This document shows, piece by piece, positions 4,051 to 59,130 of a DNA stretch of 64,000 nt. This DNA is from an uncultured Lentimicrobiaceae bacterium (lineage in GTDB: Bacteria; Bacteroidota; Bacteroidia; Bacteroidales; WCHB1-69): positions 150,543 through 214,542 of the forward strand of contig CAZRCF010000001.1 of NCBI GenBank assembly GCA_964598505.1. Direction: 5' to 3'. Position numbers and translations under genes: made by a program. Numbering within the stretch: the stretch's first letter is position 1; every line of letters begins with the position of its first letter. Under the pieces are notes generated by a model, which was not told where the DNA came from, did not search any database, and saw nothing but the letters and a program-made list of their open reading frames with translations.

Positions 4051-4085
4051 ATTATATAATTTCTATATATATAATTTGATTAATA
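4051..4085 (-). promoter_or_regulatory. promoter-like element with invariant ATATAGAAAT block (copy 1)
   Basis: Minus strand reads ATATAGAAAT-TA-TATAAT. The decamer core is at 4059-4068. It sits between a terminator hairpin and the next gene. Confidence 0.55.
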
Positions 4086-4091
4086 AAAATT

Positions 4092-4122
4092 GCGGCAAGA
4101 CCTCATAAAGAGATCTTGCCGC
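4092..4122 (-). terminator. intrinsic terminator; CGGCAAGA(T/C)CT palindromic element variant
   Basis: 13-bp stem GCGGCAAGACCTC/GAGATCTTGCCGC with one mismatch. Followed on the minus strand by AATTTTTATT. Confidence 0.65.
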
Positions 4123-4129
4123 TTTTAAA

Positions 4130-4357
4130 TTAATCTTTCTTTTCTTTTAAACGCTCAAACGATTTAATAATGATTGAAAATGGCATCCAAATAGGACATG
4201 TTAGAACAGCCCATTTTATCATAAAGAATGAAAAGTAGCACATTGCCGGTATTAATAACCAATAATATAACCACCCTTGTGAGAATACATTCATATCATA
4301 TTGAAACATTTTCCAAAGAAATGATAAATACTCATTAATAATATCTTGATATATCAT
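4130..4357 (-). CDS. small membrane protein (75 aa)
   Basis: Hydrophobic segments WLYYWLLIPAMCYFSFFMIKWAVL. Confidence 0.55.
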   Translation of the reverse strand: MIYQDIINEYLSFLWKMFQYDMNVFSQGWLYYWLLIPAMCYFSFFMIKWAVLTCPIWMPFSIIIKSFERLKEKKD

Positions 4358-5166
4358 GCAATTTCTCGCATATACATAGCTGTGTTACCAACTGTTTCAT
4401 CAACTTCAATTTGTATGTTTCCCTGAGTGATTCCAAAGTTATTTAAACACATGTAGTTAATTTTATTAGCAAATAGGAATGCCATATTTTCCGCAGTCGG
4501 ATCTAATTCAAAAGGCATAATCACAATCTTCTGATTATGTTTCGCCATATCTACTAACATTGGATCTTTACTATTTAAAACAATAGCATGATCCATTTCA
4601 TTTAGATCTTCTTGAAATGTTTTCAAGAGACTAAAATCAACAACCATATTTGGATTTTTCATCTTCTTAATATCTTCAATGAAAATACTAACTCTGACAA
4701 CATAGCTGTGACCATGGATTTTAGAACAAGGGTGTCCTTCTCCCATACACATTAGTCTATGTGAAGATTCAAACTTAAAGCTCTTCGTTATTCCATACAT
4801 TCCTCTTATATCTCCTTGTTGATTTATTAAATTATTTGATTGACATTTATTACATCTTGATATTAATAATTTTAAAGAGTTATTTTTATCAATTTTATGA
4901 TTGATGTAATTACTTGATAGATATGAAAAAACTTGCGTTTCATCAAAATCTAATGGTGAATTATGATTATATCCTCTTTTAATTAATTCATCAGCAAGAA
5001 TATCATGACGATTTTTTAAAGATAATGGTTCTAATAAATCATTATTTATATAACCATCAATATTAATTTGTTTCTTTAAACTTCCAAGAAACATGTGACA
5101 TTCATTATGTTCACCTAAGAGATGTTGTCGGCACATGATTTTTGGTGTACACATCCACAATCTCAT
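4354..5166 (-). CDS. queD: fusion: TIGR02328/pyrimidine-dimer-glycosylase-like N-domain + 6-carboxy-tetrahydropterin synthase QueD
   Basis: N-terminus MRLW..P..QHLLGEHNECH...RGYNH. C-terminal half has the QueD signature C-x3-HGH (CSKIHGHSYVV) and DHAIVLN. An internal AAGGAG lies before Met123 (ATG at 4800). Confidence 0.75.
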   Translation of the reverse strand: MRLWMCTPKIMCRQHLLGEHNECHMFLGSLKKQINIDGYINNDLLEPLSLKNRHDILADELIKRGYNHNSPLDFDETQVFSYLSSNYINHKIDKNNSLKLLISRCNKCQSNNLINQQGDIRGMYGITKSFKFESSHRLMCMGEGHPCSKIHGHSYVVRVSIFIEDIKKMKNPNMVVDFSLLKTFQEDLNEMDHAIVLNSKDPMLVDMAKHNQKIVIMPFELDPTAENMAFLFANKINYMCLNNFGITQGNIQIEVDETVGNTAMYMREIA

Positions 5167-5384
5167 AATTTTACTGAAATTTTAAGAGAATTCATAAGAG
5201 TTTCTTTTTTTCTTTTTTCTAATTCTTCTTTCGATGGAGATCCAGCAATTCCACCTAGAGGAGCATTACTAGCAAAAATATCAACAATCATTAATCCAGT
5301 TTCATCCATAAACTTTTGCATTGCTTCTTTAATGGTTGATTCTAATTGTTCTTTCTTTTCTAATAATTCATTCCTTACTGTCAT
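5163..5384 (-). CDS. hypothetical coiled-coil protein (73 aa; start moved to Met30 of track ORF)
   Basis: ATG at 5384 is preceded by GAGGGAGAA. The longer track ORF has no SD. Confidence 0.45.
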   Translation of the reverse strand: MTVRNELLEKKEQLESTIKEAMQKFMDETGLMIVDIFASNAPLGGIAGSPSKEELEKRKKETLMNSLKISVKL

Positions 5385-5541
5385 CAGTTTCTCCCTCAAG
5401 ATATTCTTCAATTGTATGAACAATAATACTTTCTCCATTAATTTCTTCTGTATCTGAGAACATCTCTTCAAATAAACAAATCAATTCTTTTATTGTCAAT
5501 GTATCTTCTGTTTCAACTTCAAGTACGATTTTGTGTATCAT
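5368..5541 (-). CDS. small acidic hypothetical protein (57 aa)
   Basis: ATGA overlap with the thyX stop suggests translational coupling. Hand translation gives MIHKIVLEVETED... Confidence 0.4.
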   Translation of the reverse strand: MIHKIVLEVETEDTLTIKELICLFEEMFSDTEEINGESIIVHTIEEYLEGETDDSKE

Positions 5542-6428
5542 TCAAACACCTCCGGATATAATTTTTTAAATTCATCATATAAAGGAATCATTAATTCTCT
5601 CATTTGTGGATGCGCCGCTGAAGAAGTTCTTAATTTAAAAATATGTTTCCATTCTTGTAAATCACAAGAAACAACTATTTCTGTTTTAAGAGAATTTGGT
5701 AATATACTTCTTGCTTGTTCTGGTTTCCAACCATCTCTTATTAAACTTGAATAAGCATGTTCTATTTCATAAAGTGATTTAAACCAAAGCCAACCATTTT
5801 TATGATCTGTTTCTCCCAATCCTTTTGGAGCGGTATTCCAACTATACTCACCTTCTTCAATCCAATCCAACCAAGGTGGAATTATATAAGTTATTTGATT
5901 TTGAAATTTATCTTTAGAATAATTACAATATCTTGTTGATTCCTGACTAAATGCTGGAGGTCGATGTCGGACTATTTCGTGACTGACACCTCTATCGCAT
6001 ATAAATTTGACTGTTGCCGAATACATATCCCATCTTTGCATATCATTAATTCTCTTAAACATTTCTAAAGTTGGAACTGAAAATTTATTTTTATTTTCAA
6101 AATTCCATTCTTCAAAAGCTCTTTGATTTCCAGCAACTATTGTTCCACTATAATAAAATGATGTATAGTTAAGAAATTTATATTTTGGAATATTATAAGT
6201 ATCATAATATCTTAATTCCCAACTATGTTCAGTTACAGAATAGTGTCCTCTATTTTTAATCATTTCAATAAATTTAATAGCCGAATCTTTTGTAATTTTA
6301 TCTTCTGATTTATAACAAGTTCTTCCCGAAGCCTCAATCAAATATTCTGGTCGATTATCATAACTATATGGTAAATCAAGCACATCTGAAGCGGCTAAGA
6401 TCTGATAACTTGGTTTTACTAAGAACAT
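5538..6428 (-). CDS. thyX: flavin-dependent thymidylate synthase ThyX
   Basis: ThyX motif RHRxxSxxxxSxR is present as VRHRPPAFSQESTRY. Confidence 0.9.
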   Translation of the reverse strand: MFLVKPSYQILAASDVLDLPYSYDNRPEYLIEASGRTCYKSEDKITKDSAIKFIEMIKNRGHYSVTEHSWELRYYDTYNIPKYKFLNYTSFYYSGTIVAGNQRAFEEWNFENKNKFSVPTLEMFKRINDMQRWDMYSATVKFICDRGVSHEIVRHRPPAFSQESTRYCNYSKDKFQNQITYIIPPWLDWIEEGEYSWNTAPKGLGETDHKNGWLWFKSLYEIEHAYSSLIRDGWKPEQARSILPNSLKTEIVVSCDLQEWKHIFKLRTSSAAHPQMRELMIPLYDEFKKLYPEVFE

Positions 6429-7507: not shown

Positions 7508-8182
7508 TTACTCCTGATATTTAATCGGATCTTCTTTTCCAATATTTTTGAAAGCCTCTAGTCGTTCTGTACAAGAACCACATTTACCACAAGATAATTC
7601 ATTACTTGTATAACAAGTTCTTGTGAATTCATATGGAACAGGTTTATCAAAAGCATACCCCATTTTAAGAATACCTGTTTTATCTAAGGTTTGAACAGGT
7701 GTTTTAATGAAAATTTTTCCATCACTACTCCTATAAATTGCTTCACCCATAGCATCAATAAATCCTTGTCGGCAATCTGGGTATATTTCATGATCTCCCA
7801 TATGTGTTCCAACAGCAACAATATTTGCTCCAACTGATTCAGCATAACCTGCCATAATTGAAATGAAAATACTATTTCTTCCTGGAACAACTGTTAATGA
7901 CATATTTGAATCGTTATAATGTCCTTCTGGAATTTCTCCTTGACCATCTAAAAGATTGGATTTAAAGAGCTCGCCAATGAAATTAAGATGAACAATTTTT
8001 AATTCTTCAGTTTCATAATAGTCAGCTAATACTATAGCAGATAGCATTTCCTTATCATTGTGCTTACTACCATAATGAAAAAATAACGGATAAATCTTAT
8101 ATCCTTTATTAGCATAATATCCTAGAACTGTTGCTGAATCCATTCCTCCGCTTAAACCCATTACTACTGTGTTGTTTGACAT
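7508..8182 (-). CDS. queC: 7-cyano-7-deazaguanine synthase QueC
   Basis: PP-loop SGGMDS, plus a C-terminal CGKCGSC zinc motif. Start set at Met14, which has AGGAGG upstream. Confidence 0.88.
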   Translation of the reverse strand: MSNNTVVMGLSGGMDSATVLGYYANKGYKIYPLFFHYGSKHNDKEMLSAIVLADYYETEELKIVHLNFIGELFKSNLLDGQGEIPEGHYNDSNMSLTVVPGRNSIFISIMAGYAESVGANIVAVGTHMGDHEIYPDCRQGFIDAMGEAIYRSSDGKIFIKTPVQTLDKTGILKMGYAFDKPVPYEFTRTCYTSNELSCGKCGSCTERLEAFKNIGKEDPIKYQE

Positions 8183-8406
8183 ATTTCCTCCTTTTGTTTT
8201 GGTTGTTCTACTCTTGGACATAAATCATTTTTAAAATATTCAAATAATTCATTTATTAAATCTTGTTGATTATTATAAAGCAATACAGCCATTGTTGCTA
8301 AAATTGCAGCAATTCTATTATCTCCTAATTCTTTAGCAATATCTAATCCATGTGTTAAATTATTAAATAACTGTTCTGTGAGTAGCATTTCTTTTACGGT
8401 TTCCAT
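8164..8406 (-). CDS. hypothetical protein (80 aa)
   Basis: ORF track. First gene downstream of promoter-like copy 2. Confidence 0.5.
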   Translation of the reverse strand: METVKEMLLTEQLFNNLTHGLDIAKELGDNRIAAILATMAVLLYNNQQDLINELFEYFKNDLCPRVEQPKQKEEICQTTQ

Positions 8407-8442
8407 CTTTTACATCCTTTTTATTAAAATAAAATTTAGATA

Positions 8443-8477
8443 CATATATTATTTCTATATGAAATTTAACAATATTA
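8443..8477 (-). promoter_or_regulatory. promoter-like element with ATATAGAAAT block (copy 2)
   Basis: Minus strand reads ATATAGAAAT-AA-TATATG. The core is at 8451-8460, directly downstream of the terminator at 8480-8516. Confidence 0.55.
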
Positions 8478-8479
8478 AA

Positions 8480-8516
8480 AAATCGGCAAGAGCTTTAAGT
8501 TAGCTCTTGCCGATTT
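8480..8516 (-). terminator. intrinsic terminator; CGGCAAGAGCT palindromic element variant
   Basis: 15-bp stem AAATCGGCAAGAGCT/AGCTCTTGCCGATTT with T-run on the minus strand. Confidence 0.7.
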
Positions 8517-13770: not shown

Positions 13771-14496
13771 TTATTTCGTATCGGCAGCTACACGAGTAGC
13801 TACAAGATTTAAATCAACAGGACATCTATCCATTAATGTTGCACCTAATCTACTAGAAATATCATTTGCTAGAGATGCTTCAACAGGATCTAACATTTCA
13901 AGTCGGGATTTATAGTTAAACTTTTGAACTGGTTTAGTATTCCGGACCTTCCATTTTGAACTTTCAAAAGCTCGATATTCTGTTCGTTTAAAGAAACTTC
14001 CATTAACACAATTCACTACAAATTCTTGAACTGATTTGCCGTTAAAGAAATGGCATCCAGTCGGTTTGTAATTTTCTGTGCCAAATTTATTACAAATATT
14101 TTTTACAGCTTCAGCTGACGCCGAAGTCCTACAACTGTTTGAGATATGAATGTGATTAATATCTTGTGGAGAAACTAAAATTTTCATTTCATCCAGATGA
14201 TTACGAATCATCCAATCTTCAAGATCGAAATTTTCATGAATATTTTCCCGAACATCTTCTAAAAATTGAACTTCTAGAACTCGCTGTCCAGCGAATTTAT
14301 CAATAGTTTCAACACCTTGTTTTGGAATTTTTCCAAATTCTGTTTCTCTAATTTTATTTAATTGTTTTAATATTTCATTATTATCTGGATCTCTAAAATT
14401 AAAAGTTTTTGAAAAATGCTGAAAAACAGCATCCTGTAAGAAACCTGTGTTGTCTCTTGCCACCGTCTTAATCATTAATACATTCAAATCTCTCAT
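13771..14496 (-). CDS. hypothetical protein (241 aa)
   Basis: ORF track; AGGGAGGC SD upstream. Confidence 0.6.
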   Translation of the reverse strand: MRDLNVLMIKTVARDNTGFLQDAVFQHFSKTFNFRDPDNNEILKQLNKIRETEFGKIPKQGVETIDKFAGQRVLEVQFLEDVRENIHENFDLEDWMIRNHLDEMKILVSPQDINHIHISNSCRTSASAEAVKNICNKFGTENYKPTGCHFFNGKSVQEFVVNCVNGSFFKRTEYRAFESSKWKVRNTKPVQKFNYKSRLEMLDPVEASLANDISSRLGATLMDRCPVDLNLVATRVAADTK

Positions 14497-14576: not shown

Positions 14577-14580
14577 CTTC

Positions 14581-14615
14581 ATTCATATTATTTCTATATA
14601 AAAACCTTGAATATA
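14581..14615 (-). promoter_or_regulatory. promoter-like element with ATATAGAAAT block (copy 3)
   Basis: Minus strand reads TTCAAGGTTTTT-ATATAGAAAT-AA-TATGAA. The core is at 14590-14599. Near-identical to copy 4 over about 28 bp. Confidence 0.55.
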
Positions 14616-14629
14616 AAAAATGATAAATG

Positions 14630-14876
14630 TGAAAAAATTGGACCACGTCTGCCATATCACTGAGACTATATTGATTGCAGTCTACCAAACTCAATCATCC
14701 CACAGACCTTATGCCAATTCTTTCCACATATCAAAATAAGGATAACGACCAATAACACAGTAGGATTTAATACCTACAAGTCGGCGAACCGTCTAAAGAT
14801 GTTACTCACATATAGAGATGCAGCAGAGTTGTTCCATTTCACTGGCTCCACATCAACTCCATGTGTTATTGATCCT
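14630..14876 (-). ncRNA. candidate promoter-driven structured non-coding RNA (about 245 nt)
   Basis: ORF-free and visibly GC-richer than its flanks. It starts just downstream of promoter copy 4. A 10-bp closing helix CAATAACACA/TGTGTTATTG encloses several hairpins (GGAGTTG/CAACTCT, a UUCG loop, GTAGG..CCTAC). Confidence 0.4.
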
Positions 14877-14880
14877 CTCT

Positions 14881-14915
14881 AAAAATATTATTTCTATATA
14901 AAAATCTTGAAAATT
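14881..14915 (-). promoter_or_regulatory. promoter-like element with ATATAGAAAT block (copy 4)
   Basis: Minus strand reads TTCAAGATTTTT-ATATAGAAAT-AA-TATTTT. The core is at 14890-14899. It abuts the stop codon of the beta-like gene. Confidence 0.5.
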
Positions 14916-14919
14916 AAAA

Positions 14920-17900
14920 TTAAGTTATATTCAATCCCATACCTAAAATATATAAATTGAATATGTCTTTTGTTCCACCAGTTTTTGAGGATTCAGGAAT
15001 AGAAGGCATATCTCCTGTTTCCATAATAGAATTATACATTTCTCTTTTTACTCGATGTTCATCACTTCTTGGACCAAGTAATTCAGATATAATATTATTA
15101 GCATTATATGTAAGAAATGAATAAATATCAAGACCCGCAATACTTTGTCCACCACCAACATTTTTTCCTTGGGTTGGTTGACGAGTAAGTCCTGTAAATC
15201 TACCTGTTCCTCTTACATTAGAATACACATCTGAATAATGCTCCAAAAACATATAATATGATATACCTACAGGAACAGGAACGTCTGTCCAACGATCAAT
15301 TTCTGGAATATATACCTTTTCTTCTAAAGGAATCTTTAAGAATTCCGCCGCTGAACGAATGCTCTTAAAATCAATATCTTCAAAAGGTTCTACAATACAA
15401 TATAAATTAATTTTATCATCTTTTATAGCTTGTCTTAATTTATTTCCAGAATAACTATTGACATTTTCTGCAACTTGTTTTGCTATCTTTTTTGGTCCAA
15501 CAATATTGTATAAATCAATAATAAACTTAGCTAATTTATCATTAGGAATTTTTGGATCTTCTGCCATTATTTCGAGCTTTTTATTTGCATTGAAGAATAT
15601 TTTTCCAAGGTATAATTCCTTTATCATTGCTACATTCTTGCGTCCCAAAATTGAAATTGGGGAGATAAAGATATCTATCTTTTCTGTAAATTCTCCTTTC
15701 GGAGCTGGATCAAGAAGTTTACTAAGAACTCCTTTTGCTCCAAAACGATTACTTAGCTTATCACCTATATTAACACTTTTTAATCTCTTAATATAATAAA
15801 CAATTCTAGAACCTACAAAAATATTTCCTTTAAGTTTATGATCACCAATGTTTATAAAACTTAAATCCATATTATCTGTAATTGAAAGTTGTTTATCTTT
15901 ATCTTTTATAACGGATGCGAGCTTTGCAATAACTTGTTTTTGTTCTTTTACAAGATTTGAATGAAATGACATAAGTTGTTTATCAGCAGAATTCTTATTA
16001 TTAATGAATACTTTGATATCAACAATTTCACCCTCTGGAGCTAATAATTTGATACTTTTAGAACCCGTTGAGAAAATGTCTTTTGGGGATTCAGAATCAT
16101 CATCTTCTATATCTAAATTTGTCGAATCAAGATATTCATCCAAACTATCTTCATATGAAAATTCAACTAATATATCCCCACTTTTAACATGTTTACCTTT
16201 TTCTATTTCAAGATTTATAATTTTTGTATTTGGGGGAATAATAGCTTGAACTTCTTCAACACTATCTGTCAGTGTTTGATCTGCAAGTTCTTTTGAAATA
16301 ATATAACTATCTTCATGATTCAATCCCATATAATTAAATAAAGCTATATTAATATTTTTACCGGCACAATATGTTCCAGCTTGATTAAAATTCTTTGTAA
16401 AAGCAATAGGTTGATTTGCTTTAAATTTCTCATCAATTCCAAGAGTATTCATTTCAAGAGAAATGTAAGATCCTCTTTTAGTTCTACTCATTCTTGGAAC
16501 TATATCAAAAATATCAATTGTTCCATCTTTATATTTCACAGTAAGTGTTTTATTTTTATCGACATCTGTGATGATTCCATCTTGTTTTGCTCTATGTATA
16601 AATCTTGGTGATGCTAATTGAGGAACAATAAATTCTGCACCAGTACAAACTAATGGTTGTTCAGAATCACTAATTGGAGTGGTTTGATTTGAATGTGTTC
16701 TTGCAAGAGTAAGACGATCACTATCGACTTGATTTTGAAATGGTGTTAAAGATTCATCTAACGCCAGTGTTTGCCATCCAGATAATTGTGTAATATCTTT
16801 AGCTCCATATGAACCATATTTATTTATTATGACCGGGGTAAGCGTGTGATGTGTAGTAAGTCCGACATCCACATACTCTGGCGTACTGACTGCTCCCATG
16901 GTACCATATTGGCTAGGGTGAATATTACGATGTTCTTTTTTGAAACTTTTTCTTGAAGGTACACCGCCTTTACCACCTTTAGTTACTCTACTACTTAACA
17001 TTATTTCCGTTATAGGAGCAACTGGCTCTGTATTCTGAAGAACCCCAGCATCAGTTAATAAACTATTAATAATATAATCTGGGTCTAAAAATACAGCAGC
17101 TTGAGGATCACCTTCTGTAATACGTTTACGATAAGTATTGTGAGAAAGTTTAATTACTTTATAAACTATATTAAGAATAATTTCACTTAATCTTGTTCTA
17201 TAAATTTTAAGATCAGATAAAGAATTCATTTGTTTATTTAGTAATTGATCAACTGCAACTTTTGAAGAAAGCTCTGTTAAATTTGTTGGCATATTTTCAA
17301 ATTGTAAAAGCTCTTTGGTAATTGGATCAACAAAATTCTCACTATTTAATCTAAGAAGAATAATTGATCTTGTACCATATGTTTGAATAATATAATTATA
17401 GATTTCCTGAGGATCATTTAAATCTTTAATTGGTTCCTTTAGTTTAATAGTTGATAATGCATTAACTATTACTCTTTGTTTTAAATTTTCAGGAGTAATC
17501 TTTAAAAATTTGCCATCGGCTTGAGCTACATAAAAAACTCCAGGTTCTGGAGTATCAGTTTCAACAACTTCATAATTTATACCATAATCATTAAGAGTTG
17601 CTAGAAGACCTTTTTGACTCCAAAGATAAAGTATCAATGGCATTTTTATTGCTCCCATATAAATCCATATATATGGAAGAGCTTTTTTAGTTTTTGTTAA
17701 ATTGTCAACCGGATTAGCTGTATGAATTTTATCTAATATAGTATCAAATAAAAACTCATATTTATTTTGTTTTAATAATTCTTTAGTTTCTACATCTTGT
17801 AATCTACCGGATTCAGTATCTGTAGTTATATTTTTATCTTTAGAACTATAAACGCTCTCGCCGGTAAAATAAATAATACTACCATCATTAAATTCACATG

Positions 17901-19614
17901 AGTTTTCGTCTCGTTTTTTGATAAGTTTTGGATATCTAATTTCAGCATATTTTGTAATTTCTGTAAGATCTGTTGGATTAAATTTTGAATTAGCTAATCC
18001 AACTCTTACAATACCGTAATTAGAAATCATACGAACTTCATTCTTATCTGTTTTTGTTACCGGACGAAGAAACTGTTGATTACTCATTATATATGATTTT
18101 CCATGAAGTTTGAAGTATTTCTCATTGACTGGAGAAGGAACTTTTAATTCGACAACATATGGTTCTTTTTTACCACCATTCATATTTTGAAGAGTAACTT
18201 TATAATTAATAAATCTATTTGAATTATCATCTTCAACGGAAGATTCGATCTTTTTTATTTTAATTGGGTATTCAGTTCCAATGGATTCTAATGAATTAAA
18301 CAGTTTTGATACATTTTCATGAATAGCAGTTTCAAATTCAAATTTCTGACGATGTTGACCAGTTGTGTATTTTAAATCAATAATCTTACTAGGATTAATA
18401 ATATTATTTGATTCGGAAATATTTAAATCATTTTTATAATAATCAATTTGTTTTAATTTATTAAATAATAAATTTGGTTTATGAAGATACTCATCTGGAA
18501 CAATATCTGAACCTGAAATTGAATAATTAATAGCTCTCAATACTAAATCCTCAGCTTGTTCCTGATTTGGTTTAGTTTTATTATTTTCAATATATTTATT
18601 CAAAGCTATTTGAACATTAGCAACAATATCAGGATCTGTAATTTTATGAGATTTTAAAGCTTTTCTTAATTCTTCTTGATTAAGTTTAACTCGAATTCCG
18701 GAAGTATCTGGATCTTTGTCAGCTACTAGAGTTGAAGTTTGAAGTGATTTAACAATTCCAGAAATGAAAGAAGGTTCTTTATTTTCTTCAGTTGTATCTT
18801 CATTTTCTTGTTCATTTTCTGGTTTATTTATTGAACCATCTTCTGTTTCTCCTGCTATAGCATTTTCCTTAGATTTGTTAATATCTTCTATTTCCGTATT
18901 TACTTCAATATATTGTTTTAATTTTAAAAGATTAGCAACAACTAATTGAGTTTCAGATTTATCTATATCAAATATTGGAATAGTTACTTCCTGACAATCT
19001 GATATAAGACTAAATTCATCAAAGAATTTAATAGATTTTAAATCATCAGCTTTGATGAATGATCTAAGATTTAAAAAAATATTATATAATCTTCCACTCT
19101 GGTTCTTAATAAGAAATACCATTTCAACATTGTAATCTTGATTGTTTGATTTAATTTGTTTATATAATGTGGCAAGCTCTTCGAAGAGTTGTCGAACAAC
19201 AGTCTTTTCCGAATATCTTTGCATCATAAATTCTAATGCTTGGCTCCACACTGTTGCATCATAAAAATAATAATTACTTGTTTTATGAGATGTTAATATT
19301 TCTTTCTCAGATTTTTCAATTATTAAACTATTTAAAACTCGTATTTTCTTACCAATTTTTTGATCTGATATATTAGAAGATAGCTTCTTTTTGACATCGA
19401 AAAAGTGAGCTTTGCCGCTAAATTTTCTTTTACCTATTGTAAGAACTTTACTTGGACAAACAAGTCCCATACAATTTGATAATAAGAAATTAGAATTATA
19501 AATTTCTGTAGATATATCAAGATTTGTATCTGGTAACATAATAAATATTGTTTTCTTATCAACATATATTTTTGTTTTTATAACATATGCTGGATGAATT
19601 GAACTATAATTCAT
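14920..19614 (-). CDS. multisubunit RNA polymerase beta-subunit homolog, full-length fused form (1564 aa)
   Basis: Beta motifs in order: IHPSQYG..STPEYVDVGL (CPIETPEG region), TPFQNQVDSDRLTLARTHSNQ (IPFLEHDDANRALMG), NRFGAKGVLSKL (GRHGNKGV), GGGQSIAGLDIYSF (GGQRFGEMEVWAL). Confidence 0.85.
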   Translation of the reverse strand: MNYSSIHPAYVIKTKIYVDKKTIFIMLPDTNLDISTEIYNSNFLLSNCMGLVCPSKVLTIGKRKFSGKAHFFDVKKKLSSNISDQKIGKKIRVLNSLIIEKSEKEILTSHKTSNYYFYDATVWSQALEFMMQRYSEKTVVRQLFEELATLYKQIKSNNQDYNVEMVFLIKNQSGRLYNIFLNLRSFIKADDLKSIKFFDEFSLISDCQEVTIPIFDIDKSETQLVVANLLKLKQYIEVNTEIEDINKSKENAIAGETEDGSINKPENEQENEDTTEENKEPSFISGIVKSLQTSTLVADKDPDTSGIRVKLNQEELRKALKSHKITDPDIVANVQIALNKYIENNKTKPNQEQAEDLVLRAINYSISGSDIVPDEYLHKPNLLFNKLKQIDYYKNDLNISESNNIINPSKIIDLKYTTGQHRQKFEFETAIHENVSKLFNSLESIGTEYPIKIKKIESSVEDDNSNRFINYKVTLQNMNGGKKEPYVVELKVPSPVNEKYFKLHGKSYIMSNQQFLRPVTKTDKNEVRMISNYGIVRVGLANSKFNPTDLTEITKYAEIRYPKLIKKRDENSCEFNDGSIIYFTGESVYSSKDKNITTDTESGRLQDVETKELLKQNKYEFLFDTILDKIHTANPVDNLTKTKKALPYIWIYMGAIKMPLILYLWSQKGLLATLNDYGINYEVVETDTPEPGVFYVAQADGKFLKITPENLKQRVIVNALSTIKLKEPIKDLNDPQEIYNYIIQTYGTRSIILLRLNSENFVDPITKELLQFENMPTNLTELSSKVAVDQLLNKQMNSLSDLKIYRTRLSEIILNIVYKVIKLSHNTYRKRITEGDPQAAVFLDPDYIINSLLTDAGVLQNTEPVAPITEIMLSSRVTKGGKGGVPSRKSFKKEHRNIHPSQYGTMGAVSTPEYVDVGLTTHHTLTPVIINKYGSYGAKDITQLSGWQTLALDESLTPFQNQVDSDRLTLARTHSNQTTPISDSEQPLVCTGAEFIVPQLASPRFIHRAKQDGIITDVDKNKTLTVKYKDGTIDIFDIVPRMSRTKRGSYISLEMNTLGIDEKFKANQPIAFTKNFNQAGTYCAGKNINIALFNYMGLNHEDSYIISKELADQTLTDSVEEVQAIIPPNTKIINLEIEKGKHVKSGDILVEFSYEDSLDEYLDSTNLDIEDDDSESPKDIFSTGSKSIKLLAPEGEIVDIKVFINNKNSADKQLMSFHSNLVKEQKQVIAKLASVIKDKDKQLSITDNMDLSFINIGDHKLKGNIFVGSRIVYYIKRLKSVNIGDKLSNRFGAKGVLSKLLDPAPKGEFTEKIDIFISPISILGRKNVAMIKELYLGKIFFNANKKLEIMAEDPKIPNDKLAKFIIDLYNIVGPKKIAKQVAENVNSYSGNKLRQAIKDDKINLYCIVEPFEDIDFKSIRSAAEFLKIPLEEKVYIPEIDRWTDVPVPVGISYYMFLEHYSDVYSNVRGTGRFTGLTRQPTQGKNVGGGQSIAGLDIYSFLTYNANNIISELLGPRSDEHRVKREMYNSIMETGDMPSIPESSKTGGTKDIFNLYILGMGLNIT

Positions 19615-25542: not shown

Positions 25543-25582
25543 TACTTTGCCTCCATATTATATTTTATTAAAAATAAAAAGC

Positions 25583-25616
25583 GATAAGAGTAATTAAGAA
25601 ATTAATTACTCTTATC
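25583..25616 (-). terminator. terminator-like hairpin located inside the nrdJ leader (possible attenuator)
   Basis: Perfect 15-bp stem GATAAGAGTAATTAA/TTAATTACTCTTATC with a 4-nt loop. Followed on the minus strand by GCTTTTTATTTTT. Lies between promoter copy 5 and the nrdJ SD. Confidence 0.6.
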
Positions 25617-25639
25617 AAAAAGATATGAGAGTATCTTCA

Positions 25640-30517: not shown

Positions 30518-30537
30518 TTATGCCTCCAAAAAGATTT

Positions 30538-39391: not shown

Positions 39392-39425
39392 TATCGGCAA
39401 GATCTTTAACTAGATCTTGCCGATA
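39392..39425 (-). terminator. terminator; 28-bp CGGCAAGATCT palindromic element, inverted copy
   Basis: CGGCAAGATCTTTAACTAGATCTTGCCG is the exact reverse complement of the cores at 45338 and 53651. Confidence 0.7.
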
Positions 39426-39832: not shown

Positions 39833-40044
39833 TTTACCTCCATATTGATTTTATTACATGTTACTGTAGTTATTGATATTATATTTCCATATGAGTTATT
39901 ACTTTTAATTGCAGCATAACATATTCCATATCTGTCTTTGAAATAACTAAGATCATTTGAAAGAGTTTCTACTTTTTCTGGTTTGTCAGTAACTGTGCAT
40001 CCTAATATGATAAATAATATAAATATAAATATTATTTTCTTCAT
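39829..40044 (-). CDS. small lipoprotein (71 aa)
   Basis: Signal peptide with lipobox: MKKIIFIFILFIILGC. Confidence 0.6.
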   Translation of the reverse strand: MKKIIFIFILFIILGCTVTDKPEKVETLSNDLSYFKDRYGICYAAIKSNNSYGNIISITTVTCNKINMEVK

Positions 40045-41078: not shown

Positions 41079-41092
41079 TTATCTGATTTCTA

Positions 41093-41127
41093 AATATATA
41101 ATTTCTATATGAAAATTGAAAATATAA
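41093..41127 (-). promoter_or_regulatory. promoter-like element with ATATAGAAAT block (copy 6)
   Basis: Minus strand reads TTTCAA-TTTTC-ATATAGAAAT-TA-TATATT. The core is at 41101-41110. Confidence 0.5.
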
Positions 41128-41144
41128 AAATGTGAGTGTTTGTT

Positions 41145-45300: not shown

Positions 45301-45334
45301 AGATTTCCTTTCTTTTTAATTCTAAAAAAATTGT

Positions 45335-45370
45335 TTATCGGCAAGATCTAGTTAAAGATCTTGCCGATAA
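45335..45370 (-). terminator. terminator; 28-bp CGGCAAGATCT palindromic element
   Basis: 15-bp stem TTATCGGCAAGATCT/AGATCTTGCCGATAA with loop AGTTAA. Confidence 0.7.
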
Positions 45371-45372
45371 AT

Positions 45373-48662: not shown

Positions 48663-49075
48663 ATTTCTTCTAAAATTTGATTAATTTGTGTATTTGTTAA
48701 TCCACAAGATGCAGATTTATTCAAAATTCTTAATACCACTTCTACGGTTTCAGGATCAGATGATGAAATCTTTTCTAAGAAAGATTTCTCTTCATCTGAT
48801 ACATCTCCAGTTTTTGAATTTAAATAATCTAACATTTCAAAAATTCCATTAACATGTTGATTCTCTGCGGCTGCAGTATCATCAAAATATACACAGTAAT
48901 TGATTTTTGTTAGTCTAAATGAATATTTTGGATCTATTATATATGTTAAAACTTTTCTCAAAGTTTGACCAAATATTGGATCTTTTAGATGTTTTCTTAA
49001 TACTTCTTCTTTATTCATTTGTGAATGATTTATATTCTCTAGTATTTCATATATAACTTTTAAGCTTATTAACAT
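48659..49075 (-). CDS. hypothetical protein (138 aa)
   Basis: ORF track. TAATG overlap with the beta N-module gene. Confidence 0.5.
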   Translation of the reverse strand: MLISLKVIYEILENINHSQMNKEEVLRKHLKDPIFGQTLRKVLTYIIDPKYSFRLTKINYCVYFDDTAAAENQHVNGIFEMLDYLNSKTGDVSDEEKSFLEKISSSDPETVEVVLRILNKSASCGLTNTQINQILEEI

Positions 49076-50241
49076 TAGTATACCTCATCAACGAATTGTC
49101 CAAACATATCTAATTTTGTTTCTGCAATTATATAAATTGTTTCTCCTGGATTTTGTGAACTAACACTTGTTGGACATATCTTTTGAAAATGTGTTGGATG
49201 TAAATTAGCTATCATACTTGGCGCTTGTTCTGCATTTGGGCTTAACATGTAAGCTTTATGTTGTAGCATTGTATCATATGCATTTACATTATCATAAATA
49301 AATTTATTGTGTAAACTTGTATAGAAATTCTTAACAATCTCCATTTGATCCATTTGAATTTCATTAATATAAAATCCTCTTGAAGCTCTTGAAGCTGTTT
49401 GGGCAATACGTTTAAATATTGGCCAAAGTAGTATTTCAAGAAATACAAGTCTTTTTTGTGTAAGATCAATAAACGAATCATCGGTCATTGTCTTATTTAA
49501 ATCAACAACAATTTTTAATAGTGTTTGAATGTTTAAATCTTTCTCATCTATATTATAACATTGTTTATATAGTAATTTTGAATAATCATCAAAAAATATG
49601 TCGTGGAAATGTTTTTGTATTGTAGCTCTGTCCGGATCACATTTGAATAGATTACTAAAATAACTTAATAAATCTTGCTCAGATATTTGAGTTGTTGTTA
49701 TTTTAAATTCCTTTATAAATTCTTGTTTTGTTGCGGCTTGATCTGGAATATTATCTGATAAGAATATATTCAAAAAGTATATTGCCGGCATATTATTACC
49801 CATAAATGTTATCAATTTATCATATATCGTAATCGAATTAAATGTGCCCGATAGTTTAACTGATTTCTTTTTAATAACAATGGGTTTATCTAATACATAC
49901 AATGTTGGTACAAAGTTATTCCCATTAAGAATAAAGAAACAATCATCAATTAATGTCGGAATAAGAAATTTCATAAATATCTTATTTGTAGCAACATTTT
50001 GATTCATAAAATTTATTTCAACAGTTACTTGTGTGAGAGAACTATTATATATCCCATTATATGTTTGTAATTCTCTAATAGTTATATTATGAACTGTTAG
50101 ATAATTTTTATTCTGTTTGGATATATATTCAACACACAAGTTCATAAAATAGTTGATAAGACTATATTGGGCAGATCTGAAGCTACCGATTGTAAAATAA
50201 TTACTTTCGGCAACTTCAGATACTTTGGTTAGAAGATTCAA
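49075..50241 (-). CDS. multisubunit RNA polymerase beta homolog, N-terminal module (split gene), TTG start
   Basis: The C-terminal end HFQKICPTSVSSQNPGETIYIIAETKLDMFGQF aligns with beta HYGRICPIETPEGPNIGLI..YA..N.YGF. AGGAGG lies 6 nt before the TTG. Confidence 0.7.
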   Translation of the reverse strand: MNLLTKVSEVAESNYFTIGSFRSAQYSLINYFMNLCVEYISKQNKNYLTVHNITIRELQTYNGIYNSSLTQVTVEINFMNQNVATNKIFMKFLIPTLIDDCFFILNGNNFVPTLYVLDKPIVIKKKSVKLSGTFNSITIYDKLITFMGNNMPAIYFLNIFLSDNIPDQAATKQEFIKEFKITTTQISEQDLLSYFSNLFKCDPDRATIQKHFHDIFFDDYSKLLYKQCYNIDEKDLNIQTLLKIVVDLNKTMTDDSFIDLTQKRLVFLEILLWPIFKRIAQTASRASRGFYINEIQMDQMEIVKNFYTSLHNKFIYDNVNAYDTMLQHKAYMLSPNAEQAPSMIANLHPTHFQKICPTSVSSQNPGETIYIIAETKLDMFGQFVDEVY

Positions 50242-50699: not shown

Positions 50700-52658
50700 T
50701 TAAGATTTCAAAAATTGAAGACTCACATCCACCACCTGTTTGGTTCGACTTTTAATCGGTCGATTTTCTGGAAGATCATATTTACCATCCACTACAAGTT
50801 GTCTAACTAAATCTTTCTTTCCAGCTGTCCAATCACTTTTTACAGATAAAATTTCTTTGACTGCTAGATCACACCCGTGTGCTAACATACTTTCTAACTC
50901 CATTTGACCAACTCTACTTCCACCACCTCTTGCTCTACCTTTGGTTGGTTGTTTAGTTATACTTTTGACACTACCAAAATCTCGAGCATTTATAATTTTA
51001 GAAACTAATTTTGATAATTTCTGAATATAAATCGGGGCACATAGGATATTTTTTAAATAAACATCTTCATCTGGAAATTGTGTTTCTAATTTTAATTTTT
51101 GTTTGATAAATTTAATCGTTTCTTTTTTAATTAAAACTGTCTCTTTATAATTGATTGTATTTTTTACTAATGTTTTTATGTCAACTTCTGCAAAAGAAGG
51201 AGATTCCACAAATAAATTTGATTGATTGATATTTTCAACAAATTGATTTCTAAATTCATCATTATCTAAATTATCAATAATTTCATTTTTGACTCTTAAA
51301 TAATATTTATCATCAATATGTTTTAAAACAGATTCGTTTAACCAAGTTATTATTTCTTTTGAATTTTCGGGATTTGTTCTAATATGTTCGTCACAATACA
51401 TAACTGATTTTCCAACTAATGCTTCCAATAGTTGCCCAAGATTCTGCCGACTAAATACACTAAAAGGATTATAAATTAAATCAATTTGTTTATTTGAAGT
51501 TGTTGCAATTGGTCGCAATTCATCTGGAAGAATCAAACTGACTATTCCTTTTGCAGCATATCTGTTTGCAATTTTGTCACCGATTACTGTTGGACAATCT
51601 TTTGATATTTCTAATTCAATAAGGTAACATAAATTATTAAGTCCTATTTCTCCTCTTGATCCTTTTGTTTTTTCAATATACATATAATATTTTTGAAGAA
51701 TATATCCAACATATTGTGAATTAAAACATTTTAGAAGATCACTTCTTGTTTGTACAACAAAAGTTCCATATTTTAAATATAATTGATCCATCATATTTTC
51801 TAATTTTTGATCGATCATTACTTGTGTTCCTAGTTTTTTGAATTTATGAATTTTGATACCTGAAATAGTACCATTTTCAACTTTTGTTTTAATTTTATCA
51901 ATTGCAAATTTACCATCTCCACAGAATCCCATATTCAATAAATCTGATAATGACATATTCTTCAATGACATTTGAACTTTATTTTTTAGATCTGAATAAT
52001 TTGCTGTCGAACTATCTCTTGGAGCAATCAAACAACATACTATATCATCCTTAATTTTTTGTCCAATTGCAGGAAAATATACATATGAATCTTGATAATC
52101 TTTATAAAATTCTTGCATTAATGTATATTCATATATCGGAATATACACTTTATCAACTTGTGAATATCTAGCTTTGTCCGCTAAACTTTCAGAAATCGTA
52201 ATAGCGTCCTCGTGATTGTATCCGAAAAATGGCATGTATGCTGTAAAAACATTATATCCATAGCTCGGAACATGACCTATGAAACAATCATAATTTGCTA
52301 AAATATCCCCTCTTTTAAATTTAGATTTATTTGGAATCACATATCTCAGTTTTGTTCCAAAAGAACCTGTTGTCTTTTTTATCGGCGGAAGACTTATATC
52401 GACAACTTTATTAAGATTTGAATATTGAACAATTAATAAATCTTGATTTTTATATAATACCTCTCCATCATCCTTAGCTAATACCACTCCCATCTTAGAG
52501 GAATTTGTTACAGTATAATAATCAGATCCAATAACATATGGAATTTCAGTATTCAAGCTTGTTAATGCTTGTTGAATTTGTTTCGCACTCATCGAAGCTC
52601 TTGTACTGTCAGTTGAGCTAAGAAATGGAATAGTATTTAAATTTACACTTACAATCAT
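50700..52658 (-). CDS. multisubunit RNA polymerase beta homolog, C-terminal module (split gene)
   Basis: Begins IVSVNLNTIPFLSSTDSTRASMSAKQIQQA ([30 protein letters not shown]). Also NRYAAKGIVS and GGGSRVGQMELESMLAHGC. Confidence 0.85.
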   Translation of the reverse strand: MIVSVNLNTIPFLSSTDSTRASMSAKQIQQALTSLNTEIPYVIGSDYYTVTNSSKMGVVLAKDDGEVLYKNQDLLIVQYSNLNKVVDISLPPIKKTTGSFGTKLRYVIPNKSKFKRGDILANYDCFIGHVPSYGYNVFTAYMPFFGYNHEDAITISESLADKARYSQVDKVYIPIYEYTLMQEFYKDYQDSYVYFPAIGQKIKDDIVCCLIAPRDSSTANYSDLKNKVQMSLKNMSLSDLLNMGFCGDGKFAIDKIKTKVENGTISGIKIHKFKKLGTQVMIDQKLENMMDQLYLKYGTFVVQTRSDLLKCFNSQYVGYILQKYYMYIEKTKGSRGEIGLNNLCYLIELEISKDCPTVIGDKIANRYAAKGIVSLILPDELRPIATTSNKQIDLIYNPFSVFSRQNLGQLLEALVGKSVMYCDEHIRTNPENSKEIITWLNESVLKHIDDKYYLRVKNEIIDNLDNDEFRNQFVENINQSNLFVESPSFAEVDIKTLVKNTINYKETVLIKKETIKFIKQKLKLETQFPDEDVYLKNILCAPIYIQKLSKLVSKIINARDFGSVKSITKQPTKGRARGGGSRVGQMELESMLAHGCDLAVKEILSVKSDWTAGKKDLVRQLVVDGKYDLPENRPIKSRTKQVVDVSLQFLKS

Positions 52659-53315: not shown

Positions 53316-53362
53316 TTTTCGTTCTCCTTTTTATTTATGAGCTTAATAAAAAATAATTAGTA

Positions 53363-53391
53363 ATTATACTATTTCTATATATAAATTGTAA
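53363..53391 (-). promoter_or_regulatory. promoter-like element with ATATAGAAAT block (copy 7), best sigma-70-like fit
   Basis: Minus strand reads TTACAA-(17 nt including ATATAGAAAT)-TATAAT. The core is at 53371-53380. Confidence 0.6.
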
Positions 53392-53417
53392 TTATTAGAA
53401 ATTACTTTATTGAAATT

Positions 53418-53647: not shown

Positions 53648-53683
53648 AATCCGGCAAGATCTAGTTAAAGATCTTGCCGGATT
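53648..53683 (-). terminator. terminator; 28-bp CGGCAAGATCT palindromic element
   Basis: 15-bp stem AATCCGGCAAGATCT/AGATCTTGCCGGATT with loop AGTTAA. The core is identical to the one at 45338. Confidence 0.7.
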
Positions 53684-55721: not shown

Positions 55722-55752
55722 TTAAACGCCTCCTTTATTTATTTTAAATTGG

Positions 55753-55857
55753 GGCAGAGGCAGGGGTTGATACCTACAAGTATTAAACTTTATTATAATT
55801 TAATACATCTAGCCCACTAATTATCTACCTTAAGTTAGATTAGTCTGCCACTCTGCC
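55753..55857 (-). ncRNA. candidate structured RNA (about 105 nt)
   Basis: ORF-free. Terminal helix GGCAGAG(T)GCAG / CTGC-CTCTGCC encloses two hairpins (ACTAAT..ATTAGT and TATTAAA..TTTAATA). Shares the 12-mer ACTTGTAGGTAT with the 14.7-kb candidate RNA. Confidence 0.35.
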
Positions 55858-55864
55858 ATGAATT

Positions 55865-57087: not shown

Positions 57088-57876
57088 TTAATAATTTGTC
57101 ATTATTGCTACTGCATTGTGAGCGTGAATTGATTCATCGGATTCTACACTTACTTTAAATTTCTCAACATCTTCCATTTTATCTAATTTATCATATACGG
57201 CGCGAGCTATATCTTCGACAAACATTGGACTATTGTATGCTCTTTCTGTAACTACTTTTTCATCAATTCTCTTAAGTACTGAAAATATTTCACAAGATGA
57301 AGATGATTCTGCCGCTTCAATAAGGGATTCAATCCAAATAAATGAATTCTCTTTTCCTTGAACTACCATATCAATTAATACTTTCTGATTGTGTGCTCCA
57401 TATTCAGATATTTCTTTTGAGCAAGGACATAGAGATGTTGCTAATACTTTGACACCCAATCTAAATATGAAATTGTCTTTTGTTTTAATTCCAGTAAAAG
57501 AAATATGATATGGAAGTATACCAGGTTCCTGAGAAGCTGGAGCTAACTTCTGAACAAAATATGGAAACGAATAACTTATTTCACAAGTATCCGCTTCCGC
57601 TGAAATTCTTATATTTTCTGCAATTGAACTAATTAGTTTACCATTAAGTTGTTGTCCAACAAATTTCTGTAAACCAATTATTAATCTACTCATATTTGTT
57701 CCTTTAAGATTAGCAGCGAGATCTACATAACAATCAACTTTAGCAACTGAATGTTGTACTCCTCCGTTCTTCATTGAAACAAAAATAGGAAGTTCAACAG
57801 AATTGATACCAACTCTATTGATCCTAATTTCATGTACTGGTAATGTGTATTGCATATCCGGTAAGTTTTCTGACAT
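57088..57876 (-). CDS. folE2: GTP cyclohydrolase IB (FolE2 / GCYH-IB)
   Basis: N-terminal LPDMQ, RVGIN..ELPI, and SLCPCSKEIS..GAHNQ metal-site motif. AGGAGA SD upstream. Confidence 0.85.
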   Translation of the reverse strand: MSENLPDMQYTLPVHEIRINRVGINSVELPIFVSMKNGGVQHSVAKVDCYVDLAANLKGTNMSRLIIGLQKFVGQQLNGKLISSIAENIRISAEADTCEISYSFPYFVQKLAPASQEPGILPYHISFTGIKTKDNFIFRLGVKVLATSLCPCSKEISEYGAHNQKVLIDMVVQGKENSFIWIESLIEAAESSSSCEIFSVLKRIDEKVVTERAYNSPMFVEDIARAVYDKLDKMEDVEKFKVSVESDESIHAHNAVAIMTNY

Positions 57877-57899
57877 TTAACTTTATCTCCTCTTTCTTA

Positions 57900-58178
57900 T
57901 TAATTTCCGTATGGATTCTTAAATATTGGAATAGGATTGTCAATTTCTTTATCAATTTCTTCCATAGCTTTTTCTGTCCAACTGTGTGTTTCTTCCATAG
58001 ATGAATCTATCGGATCTGGAAAATCTATTTTCTTTATTTCCTGTCCAGAAATTGATATATCATATATATTTTCTGGAAAAAATAATTCTGTGATATGTTC
58101 CATTAATCCATCTATAAAATTACCAGCGTCTACATTGTCTGGTAGTGCCAAAGTAAGTTTATGATTAATTATTTGCAT
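57900..58178 (-). CDS. acidic hypothetical protein (92 aa)
   Basis: ORF track. Confidence 0.5.
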   Translation of the reverse strand: MQIINHKLTLALPDNVDAGNFIDGLMEHITELFFPENIYDISISGQEIKKIDFPDPIDSSMEETHSWTEKAMEEIDKEIDNPIPIFKNPYGN

Positions 58179-58626
58179 TTATATCTCCTCTTAAAACTTC
58201 AACTAAAAAATTCTTTACTTTCTCGAAAATACCTGGATTGGTACTTTCCCGATTTCCACTAACATTTAAAATTACAATATTGTTCCAGTTAATCCATCTA
58301 AGAAATGATTCTTTTGTAGGATTAATAATATATGGTTTTCCAAATTGTTTGCAACTATTAATTGTTAATTTTCCACCTGGACTAGATTCGTTCCCGAACC
58401 AGATAGTAGCAGAAGAATTTTTAACATTTTCAATTGTTCTTGTTCTATAATTAGGACTTCCACTTTCTGTTATCCCATACAATTCTTTAAGAGCAGGATT
58501 AAAACCAGTTTCTGTTTTAAAACCTTTAGGTGCTATTCCTCCCGTCTCGAGCTTTAAAATTTTACCAGCCTCTAACCCCGCTTGATCAGCTCCAGTTTGA
58601 GCTCCTGATATTATTTTAGTGATCAT
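58165..58626 (-). CDS. YpsA-like SLOG-superfamily nucleotide-binding protein
   Basis: IISGAQTGADQAGLEAGKILKLETGGIAPKG matches the YpsA / putative molybdenum carrier GGQTGADRAAL...GG.CPKG signature. The ATG at 58626 is preferred over the upstream TTG. Confidence 0.6.
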   Translation of the reverse strand: MITKIISGAQTGADQAGLEAGKILKLETGGIAPKGFKTETGFNPALKELYGITESGSPNYRTRTIENVKNSSATIWFGNESSPGGKLTINSCKQFGKPYIINPTKESFLRWINWNNIVILNVSGNRESTNPGIFEKVKNFLVEVLRGDINANN

Positions 58627-58798
58627 TTTTAATATCCCATAATATAAGTCGTACAAACTCTTCTAATTTATTATGTACGTCACACATATCCTCTCCTTTT
58701 TGAATAACTATTTCTCTTGTCCAATCTTTGTCATTTTGTATTCTTAAATGATAATTTTTCTCATTTTCAAAAGCACATAAATCTTTAAGTTTATTCAT
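58616..58798 (-). CDS. hypothetical protein (60 aa)
   Basis: ORF track. Confidence 0.45.
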   Translation of the reverse strand: MNKLKDLCAFENEKNYHLRIQNDKDWTREIVIQKGEDMCDVHNKLEEFVRLILWDIKNDH

Positions 58799-59048
58799 TT
58801 ATTCTCTCCTCTATTTTTATATATTCACCTAATAATTTTTTAACACAATATTGACAGAGATCTAATTTCATTTGTGATTCATCTCCAAAAATAGACCCAT
58901 AACCATTTGTTTTATCAATGCTTATAAATTCTTCAATTTCCATAACATCTTTTGATCTATTATCATTTTCATAAACAGTTTTACAACAATCACAAACAAT
59001 TTGATCTAATACTTTCCGAGTATATGCTTCTTCTATGTAATTCTTCAT
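58791..59048 (-). CDS. Cys-containing hypothetical protein (85 aa)
   Basis: CDCC ... CQYC pairs. First gene downstream of promoter copy 8; AAGGAGAAGAAAATG start context. Confidence 0.55.
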   Translation of the reverse strand: MKNYIEEAYTRKVLDQIVCDCCKTVYENDNRSKDVMEIEEFISIDKTNGYGSIFGDESQMKLDLCQYCVKKLLGEYIKIEERINE

Positions 59049-59096
59049 TTTCTTCTCCTTTTAGAAATAAAAAACAAACGATTTGAGGTCGTTATA

Positions 59097-59130
59097 AGAA
59101 TATAATTTCTATATGAAATATGAAAATAAA
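59097..59130 (-). promoter_or_regulatory. promoter-like element with ATATAGAAAT block (copy 8)
   Basis: Minus strand reads ATATAGAAAT-TA-TATTCT. The core is at 59105-59114. Downstream of the terminator at 59141-59171. A small leader hairpin AACGA..TCGTT plus T-run follows. Confidence 0.55.

Follow-up and report, generated by a model that had tools for sequence, protein, structure and literature searches.

A repeated decamer as the probable core of early promoters read by the virion RNA polymerase of an uncultivated jumbo phage

The 64-kb stretch of contig CAZRCF010000001.1 analysed here (the window) is part of a metagenomic jumbo phage of 205 kb, which has genes for two multisubunit RNA polymerases (RNAPs) with split subunits, and it carries eight copies of one decamer, ATTTCTATAT on the plus strand, which in the direction of the genes (minus strand) reads ATATAGAAAT. 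The repeat is real and is not a product of chance. By analogy with characterized jumbo phages, the decamer is, with a probability of about 0.72, the invariant core of early promoters read by the phage's virion-packaged RNAP; which polymerase reads it, that it acts early and exactly where transcription begins are what we infer. The promoter class itself has already been described, and the decamer is most likely a new sequence for that class, common to a sizeable uncultivated clade.

An exact search placed the decamer at 4059, 8451, 14590, 14890, 25648, 41101, 53371 and 59105 of the window, against an expectation of 1.49 copies (standard deviation 1.43), and eight copies were reached in none of 100 dinucleotide shuffles. 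This agrees with an earlier sequence-only reading of the window, which had listed these eight copies and judged them to be beyond chance. One-mismatch forms of the decamer were not in excess (48 in the window, 36 expected), so the enrichment is confined to the exact word. All credible genes of the window lie on the minus strand, with strong AGGAGG ribosome sites, and the GC content is about 29%. All eight decamers fall between called genes in the same orientation as the genes, as had also been claimed, and are spread over seven intergenic gaps, six of which are among the largest.

Joining 10 kb of the contig to each end of the window gave 18 kb of new sequence, bringing the total to 82 kb of the ~205-kb phage. 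The flanks add 11 decamers, for 19 exact copies in 82 kb where ~2 are expected; taken singly, two flanking loci hold 6 (0.45 expected) and 9 (0.44 expected). None of the 19 lies within a called gene, with intergenic sequence making up ~6-8% of the total by a crude open reading frame (ORF) mask, and a de novo tally of intergenic 9-mers ranked the decamer word first and the stem of a conserved hairpin family second. The strand of the decamer switches where gene direction switches, at a divergent pair (L006 2197, minus; L006 2253, plus), and its orientation matches that of the downstream gene at 19 of 19 sites, the divergent pair included. The distance from decamer to start codon is variable, from ~20 to 125 nucleotides (nt).

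An exact copy of one window protein was found on a 205,069-bp metagenomic contig (ENA ERZ27262927) and on shorter JGI and Logan contigs, and megablast of a 12-kb window piece against phage genomes gave no match, the phage being known only from metagenomes. Pfam RNA_pol_Rpb1/Rpb2 domains were detected on products of 435, 1564, 652, 409, 351 and 321 amino acids (aa), and tblastn showed 22-26% identity between the RNAP pieces of the window and jumbo phages of Fusobacterium, Listeria, Staphylococcus, Yersinia and Bacillus. The pieces were accordingly assigned to two enzymes, one of the virion (435 + 592 + 1564 aa) and one non-virion (388 + 652 aa and 409 + 351 + 321 aa), all of the following coordinates being on the minus strand. 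The 435-aa protein (28197-29504), assigned as the N-terminal part of virion beta', has AR9 g145, a "virion RNAP subunit", as its sole tblastn match (E 3e-32), and no decamer occurs for 11.6 kb upstream of its gene. The putative C-terminal part of virion beta' (592 aa, 20510-22288) was placed by elimination and neighbourhood, with AR9 g154 and g264 matching about equally, and the putative virion beta (1564 aa, 14920-19614) is a fused protein with an N-terminal extension, for which the depositor label in Staphylococcus phage Madawaska is "viral RNA polymerase beta subunit". On the non-virion side, the C-terminal part of beta (652 aa, 50700-52658) is homologous to AR9 gp089, which belongs to the purified non-virion RNAP (PMC5449584), and the probable N-terminal part (388 aa, 49075-50241) has a weak match to AR9 gp105 (E 3e-4, two segments). 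Non-virion beta' (409 + 351 + 321 aa) straddles the right window edge and is interrupted by an HNH endonuclease gene; its third fragment, with an Rpb1_5 domain, lies at 62385-63383, and the other fragments and the endonuclease lie just past the edge (L006 5101-9925).

Two decamers stand at the head of the operons for this second enzyme. The copy at 53371 is followed by a phosphoribosyltransferase-like gene, a small gene, beta-C, SSB, beta-N-like and glycosyltransferase-like genes and NAD-ligase, and a decamer at L006 3524 heads the operon for the three beta' fragments. Because both non-virion RNAP operons begin with the motif, and an enzyme cannot make itself, the reader of the motif must be present at the start of infection, and is therefore either the virion RNAP or the host RNAP. 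Other decamers head small genes of unknown function, QueC/ThyX/QueD-like genes, FolE2, a ribonucleotide reductase of class II (behind copy 25648) and a 5'-3' exonuclease. Every RNAP-encoding jumbo phage carries an invariant AT-rich motif of ~10 nt, centred near -10, before its early operons (PMC7598289; PMC5312081); such a motif has been an early promoter wherever tested, and its reader must be the injected virion RNAP (PMC7598289). The present phage shares with these systems the two RNAP sets, the over-represented AT-rich word, the intergenic co-orientation and the early-type genes downstream. The comparative evidence, namely the two RNAPs, the motif at the head of both non-virion operons and its conservation in a clade, fits the earlier suggestion of a phage-specific promoter class, read by an RNAP of the phage itself and defining a temporal class.

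The conserved element extends beyond the decamer. Sites were numbered relative to the decamer (minus upstream, plus downstream), a scheme distinct from start-site numbering, and were compared as the phage's own set of 19 and as a clade matrix of 37 sites from the phage and its relatives. The wider consensus is T-rich (-39 to -28 in start-site numbering)-ATATAGAAAT-NN-TAT-NNN-T-R, in which the T-rich block, aTTTTnATAtT, lies ~11-20 nt upstream of the decamer, with a loose CA in between. The phage's own sites have a pyrimidine at -1, T at +3 in 19/19, A at +4 in 16/19 and T at +5 in 15/19, followed by T at +9 in 16/19 (binomial P 1e-5) and a purine at +10 in 18/19 (P 1e-4). Across the clade matrix, T occurs at +3 in 33 of the 37 sites and at +9 in 31, a purine at +10 in 35, and T at -11 in 34 and at -19 in 32. 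The TAT-starting hexamer described earlier exactly 2 nt past the decamer is present at 8/8 window copies, and copy 7 (53371) does read TTACAA-17-TATAAT, whereas the TTNCAA-like hexamer reported upstream holds only loosely, with C at -8 in 20 and A at -7 in 26 of the 37 sites. Because the T at +9 and the purine at +10 are conserved and a T at +8 is not, we place the start at this purine, 10 nt past the decamer; the decamer core would then lie at about -19 to -10, TAT at -7 to -5 and the T-rich block at about -39 to -28.

Conservation of the element was then followed through related phages. A relative with 80% identity (IMG/VR 3300029288_003026) carries the decamer at four orthologous promoters, each within a conservation island of about -22 to +15 in regions that are otherwise ~50% identical. 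Three further decamers in this relative have no flanking signature, one in the reductase coding sequence (L009 16372), one antisense (L009 19131) and one in a hairpin loop of intron-like sequence (L013 11929); these are probably chance copies and not promoters, which suggests that the decamer alone is insufficient and that the flanks matter. The divergent decamer pair is kept on a contig with a 62%-identical 574-aa protein. A homology search with virion beta'N returned 297 proteins from uncultivated phages, from which contigs were sampled. At 65% identity (L020), five exact decamers were found in 18 kb where 0.43 would be expected, each of them between genes and in gene orientation; at 51% (L021), the same divergent decamer pair again; at 47% (L022), one exact decamer and two variants, of which ATACAGAAAT precedes the exonuclease ortholog and the other is ATATAAAGAAAT; and at 43% (L023), two exact decamers and ATACAGAAAT. 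The annotated early promoters of AR9, 31% identical in beta'N, share ATATATTAT-N6-G, and several intergenic sites of a metagenomic 236-kb phage (L010, 30%) combine the AR9-type ATATATTAT with a G placed exactly 6 nt further downstream. The core word thus appears steady within a clade and different between clades of the phage polymerase. The top 10-mers of L010 were also considered as a promoter motif and rejected as coding repeats. Viral-contig scans with 574-aa, 241-aa and 526-aa queries found no relatives, and one metagenome scan recovered only a 2.2-kb contig. In the 51% relative, an IS605 OrfB/Cas12f-like TnpB gene (L021 8142-9416) adjoins the virion RNAP beta'N gene.

Four points weigh against reading the decamer as a virion-RNAP early promoter. 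The assignment to a polymerase draws on homology and analogy, and since the AR9 matches are ambiguous, the 592-aa and 1564-aa proteins were placed in the virion enzyme by elimination. The virion beta'C gene (592 aa) may itself be co-transcribed from the "early" copy 25648, as it lies 3.4 kb downstream with no clear terminator after the reductase. The 82 of ~205 kb read (40%) include no structural-gene module, so that the absence of the motif from late regions is seen in one 15-kb stretch. Finally, the geometry of the sites also permits a sigma-70-like arrangement of TTNCAA, 17-18 nt and TATNNN, of which copy 53371 (TTACAA-17-TATAAT) is a good example, and this opens the case for host sigma-A (sigma-70 family) promoters, perhaps with a phage activator on the decamer, in which TTNCAA would be the -35, the decamer would occupy the spacer and TATNNN would be the -10 element, much as in T4 middle promoters. 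The A/T-rich block upstream of the decamer is UP-element-like, and the AGGAGG ribosome sites suggest a Gram-positive-type host with a canonical sigma-A. We nevertheless consider host promoters unlikely. The best sigma-70 fit averaged 7.8/12 over the 19 sites, with TTG in one, and T at +8, the closing base of a -10 hexamer, was found in 10/19 own sites and 15/37 clade-wide, against 31/37 for the out-of-register T at +9. Ten "spacer" bases are invariant, and it is precisely the positions ignored by sigma-70 that do not vary. Counts of sigma-70-like sites in the window (134, 123 and 127) show no enrichment over expectation (121, 123 and 136), and the Pfam matches for the region include no sigma, MotA or AsiA-type domain. 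The decamer is moreover kept down to 43% identity, in phages probably of different hosts, and a host promoter would leave the virion RNAP promoterless. The earlier framing of a -35 hexamer, the decamer as spacer or extended -10 and TATNNN as the -10 is probably wrong on the same numbers (7.8/12, TTG 1/19, +8 T 15/37).

The suggestion of the sequence-only reading, one of the two phage RNAPs, also covers the non-virion enzyme as the reader, and the motif does stand before replication and nucleotide-metabolism genes, a kind that some phages express as "middle" genes and of which AR9 expresses many continuously (PMC5312081). That the motif heads both operons encoding the non-virion enzyme makes this decidedly unlikely, as do the length and invariance of the decamer, which are those of virion-RNAP promoters. 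Known non-virion promoters are short and weakly conserved, AACA-N6-TA/G in AR9 and TATG in phiKZ, and cannot be found bioinformatically (PMC7598289). At the positions matching -11 to -8 of the AR9 late promoter the present sites read A-T-N-N and not AACA, and the two share only the T-purine step. The putative virion genes, in turn, sit in a decamer-free stretch of 15.4 kb between copies 41101 and 25648, which contains three hairpins and the genes for a gp13-like virion protein, a PAAR-like protein, virion beta'N and a helicase, and which looks late, consistent with an early role of the motif. A late-promoter motif was sought in the decamer-free gaps and nothing convincing was found, the hairpins there standing almost directly before ribosome sites. 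A role outside promoters, as an operator for a phage DNA-binding regulator or as an RNA-leader signal for processing, stability or antitermination, would suit the constant intergenic position near gene starts and the attenuator-like hairpin after copy 25648, but is very improbable. The decamer is non-palindromic and strictly co-oriented, unlike typical dimeric operators; the distance to the start codon varies over ~20-125 nt, and the decamer also precedes ORF-less RNAs. At several copies, strong terminators end 10-20 nt upstream, and because they leave no space for another promoter, the conserved block itself must supply initiation.

In the mechanism that follows from reading the decamer as a virion-RNAP promoter, the virion RNAP (435, 592 and 1564 aa) would enter the cell together with the DNA and read a ~40-bp element composed of the T-rich block, the loose CA, ATATAGAAAT, 2 nt, T-A-T, 3 nt, and a T followed by the purine start. 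Besides the decamer at -19 to -10, its conserved blocks would lie near -30 and -7. These sites would supply the non-virion RNAP and the enzymes that metabolize nucleotides and modify and replicate DNA, along with homing endonucleases and one or more small structured RNAs, with sequence-conserved hairpins insulating the transcription units from each other.

The eight predicted promoters of the window all lie on the minus strand. Copy 1 (4049-4090; decamer 4059-4068; predicted start near 4049) precedes a run of small genes (3833-4000 onward), and copy 2 (8441-8482; decamer 8451-8460; predicted start 8441) an 80-aa gene followed by QueC, ThyX and QueD-like genes. Copy 3 (14580-14621; decamer 14590-14599; predicted start 14580) stands before a 241-aa gene at 13771-14496, and copy 4 (14880-14921; decamer 14890-14899; predicted start 14880) before an ORF-less structured RNA. 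Copy 5 (25638-25679; decamer 25648-25657; predicted start 25638) serves the ribonucleotide reductase gene (22783-25542) and is kept in the 80% relative at L009 14188. The 5'-3' exonuclease-like gene (40041-41078) is preceded by copy 6 (41091-41132; decamer 41101-41110; predicted start 41091), whose orthologs stand at L013 17859 and L023 1757, with L022 showing the variant ATACAGAAAT. Copy 7 (53361-53402; decamer 53371-53380; predicted start 53361) opens the operon that carries both non-virion beta genes (652 + 388 aa) together with SSB and NAD-ligase, and copy 8 (59095-59136; decamer 59105-59114; predicted start 59095; ortholog at L013 1342) heads an operon that includes the GTP cyclohydrolase gene FolE2. 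The annotated ATG of the exonuclease-like gene (41078) lies 22 nt past the decamer and lacks a ribosome site, while a good AGGAG is found further downstream, followed by ATT, so that the annotated start may not be the true one. The reductase contains a 21-aa tandem duplication (NNEEFYTKTIKKFCTSNWEEV twice, within 23000-24000), giving 919 aa, and a near-identical ENA contig encodes 898 aa.

Terminator hairpins stand directly upstream of copies 1 (4092-4122), 2 (8480-8516) and 8 (59139-59173). The order of hairpin and then motif that the sequence-only reading described was therefore upheld at 4.1, 8.5 and 59.1 kb but not at 25.6 kb, where the strong hairpin is downstream of the motif and only a weak one is upstream. 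The downstream structure, a 16-bp hairpin with a U-run in the reductase leader (25582-25617, minus strand), lies between copy 5 and the gene start and is attenuator-like; the 78-nt segment that holds it is absent from the 80% relative (L009). Upstream of copy 5, a GC-rich region (25660-25810, minus strand) with the weak hairpin inside is kept in that relative with compensatory changes (CTGGAT..ATCCAG against CAAGAT..ATCTTG), a sign that the preceding operon may end in a structured RNA. A 143-nt gap at 55722-55864 (minus strand) is also GC-rich and apparently structured, and has no decamer.

The conserved hairpin family has the form ATCGGCAAGA(T/G)CT-loop-AG(A/C)TCTTGCCGAT, and GGCAAGANCT occurs 19 times against 0.15 expected. 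Copies in the window lie at 4094-4120, 8485-8511, 30537-30573, 39396-39421, 45333-45372 and 53653-53678, with imperfect ones at 42931 and 59139-59173. Most are terminator-like palindromes between operons, some without a U-run, and the stem is enriched in the 80% relative too. Single half-sites were found at 62560, 33145, 31274, 26194, 21488 and 10397; these six lie inside genes, on either strand, and a plain terminator role does not account for them.

Between copies 4 and 3 lies a predicted ORF-less transcript of ~280 nt (14600-14880, minus strand), with a hairpin and U6 end just before copy 3. Its fold is -81 kcal/mol (z = -3.3), it belongs to no Rfam family, and its first ~45 nt resemble the RNA that begins after a decamer ahead of the reductase gene of the 65% relative (L020 11132). 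A different GC-rich ORF-less segment of ~370 nt stands behind a decamer in the 51% relative (L021 2775-3139). Rfam returned two tRNAs only for the window at the gathering threshold, and permissive scans of the ORF-less regions gave matches at chance level only. Outside the window, an 880-nt AT-rich gene-free region (L006 2909-3787; contig 4270-5150) contains three decamers, one left-facing with no gene ahead and two right-facing, and direct repeats that include CTTAATAATAGTTA and AGTTATAA. This region may serve as an origin or hold a group of small early RNAs.

Homing-endonuclease genes were found within core genes, several with intron-like flanks, at 63384-64000 continuing into L006 7923-8960, at L009 15244-16154 and at L013 11055-11993. 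The interrupted gene in this phage is non-virion beta'; in the 80% relative, both the reductase and non-virion beta-C are interrupted. The HNH endonuclease gene at L006 8088 and the homing-endonuclease gene at L009 15437 each have a decamer promoter of their own.

Genes for the 7-deazaguanine precursor (QueC, PTPS/QueD-like, radical-SAM QueE-like and FolE2) are present together with ThyX and dUTPase, mostly under decamer promoters (7508-8221, 4354-5166, 30580-31458, 57088-57876, 5538-6428 and 29852-30517). This pathway would be a possible basis for a modified base at the single invariant G of the otherwise A/T-only ~40-bp promoter, serving the virion RNAP as a mark of self, an idea to which we give hardly any weight. 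The non-virion RNAP of AR9 requires deoxyuridine in its promoters. No DNA-inserting transglycosylase (DpdA) was identified; a 436-aa protein (35319-36629) with a DSGG motif was considered as a DpdA-type transglycosylase and dropped, having no support from Pfam, NCBIfam, PHROGs or PDB sequences.

As an annotation aid that needs no cultivation, the 15-position signature ATATAGAAAT-NN-TAT-NNN-T-R with its upstream T-rich block could be used to locate early transcription units, early small RNAs and those homing endonucleases that bring their own promoter in genomes of the clade. One core word is kept from 100% down to 43% subunit identity and another is used in AR9-type phages (~30%); the two-word contrast between clades therefore offers a natural data set on which part of a sigma-less virion polymerase reads the promoter. 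The finding extends a known rule and overturns nothing.

Among known systems, AR9/PBS1 is the closest in design, with virion and non-virion split multisubunit RNAPs in both phages. The early promoter of AR9, AAATATATATTAT-N6-G(+1), is found at 41 sites, which do not accept even one altered base (PMC5312081), an intolerance that the present motif shares. Both have an invariant AT-rich core word starting near -19, the AR9 13-mer being in the same register, and both occur at intergenic, gene-oriented and sometimes tandem sites, about one per 4-6 kb. The AR9 early promoter P087 precedes g087, g088, g089 and, further on, the ligase gene g095, the same layout of promoter, two small genes, beta-C and ligase as at copy 53371, and AR9 early promoters also stand before homing-endonuclease genes (PMC5312081). 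The two differ in the core, ATATAGAAAT-NN-TAT here and ATATATTAT in AR9, with an invariant G in the present word; in the start, predicted here at a T-purine step 10 nt past the decamer and in AR9 at a G 7 nt past the core; and in the additional conserved T-rich block near -30 to -39 of the present phage. Their RNAP subunits are 24-31% identical, and because the present phage encodes ThyX and dUTPase, its DNA, unlike that of AR9, probably contains no uracil.

The phiKZ-type phages offer a more distant parallel. Their early promoters are conserved at -10, -20 and -30, and their genomes carry sequence-conserved terminators (PMC11512511). AT-rich early promoters, an injected virion RNAP and conserved terminator hairpins are features of phiKZ and 201phi2-1 (PMC11512511, PMC13282480) that the present phage appears to share, the reader of its promoters being predicted, although the promoter sequence is another one and the lineage very distant, with RNAP pieces ~22% identical to those of phiKZ-like phages. 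Sigma-70/sigma-A promoters resemble the element in overall length and in the arrangement of a hexamer, 17-18 nt and TATNNN, but here conservation is concentrated within the "spacer", while TTG at -35 is all but missing and the last -10 base is unconserved. The middle promoters of T4, a MotA box with a sigma-70 -10 element, likewise place a phage-specific box upstream of a TA-rich -10-like element. The T4 box, however, is centred at -30, whereas the box described here lies 2 nt from TAT, in a phage that has its own RNAPs and a region whose Pfam matches include no MotA/AsiA-like proteins.

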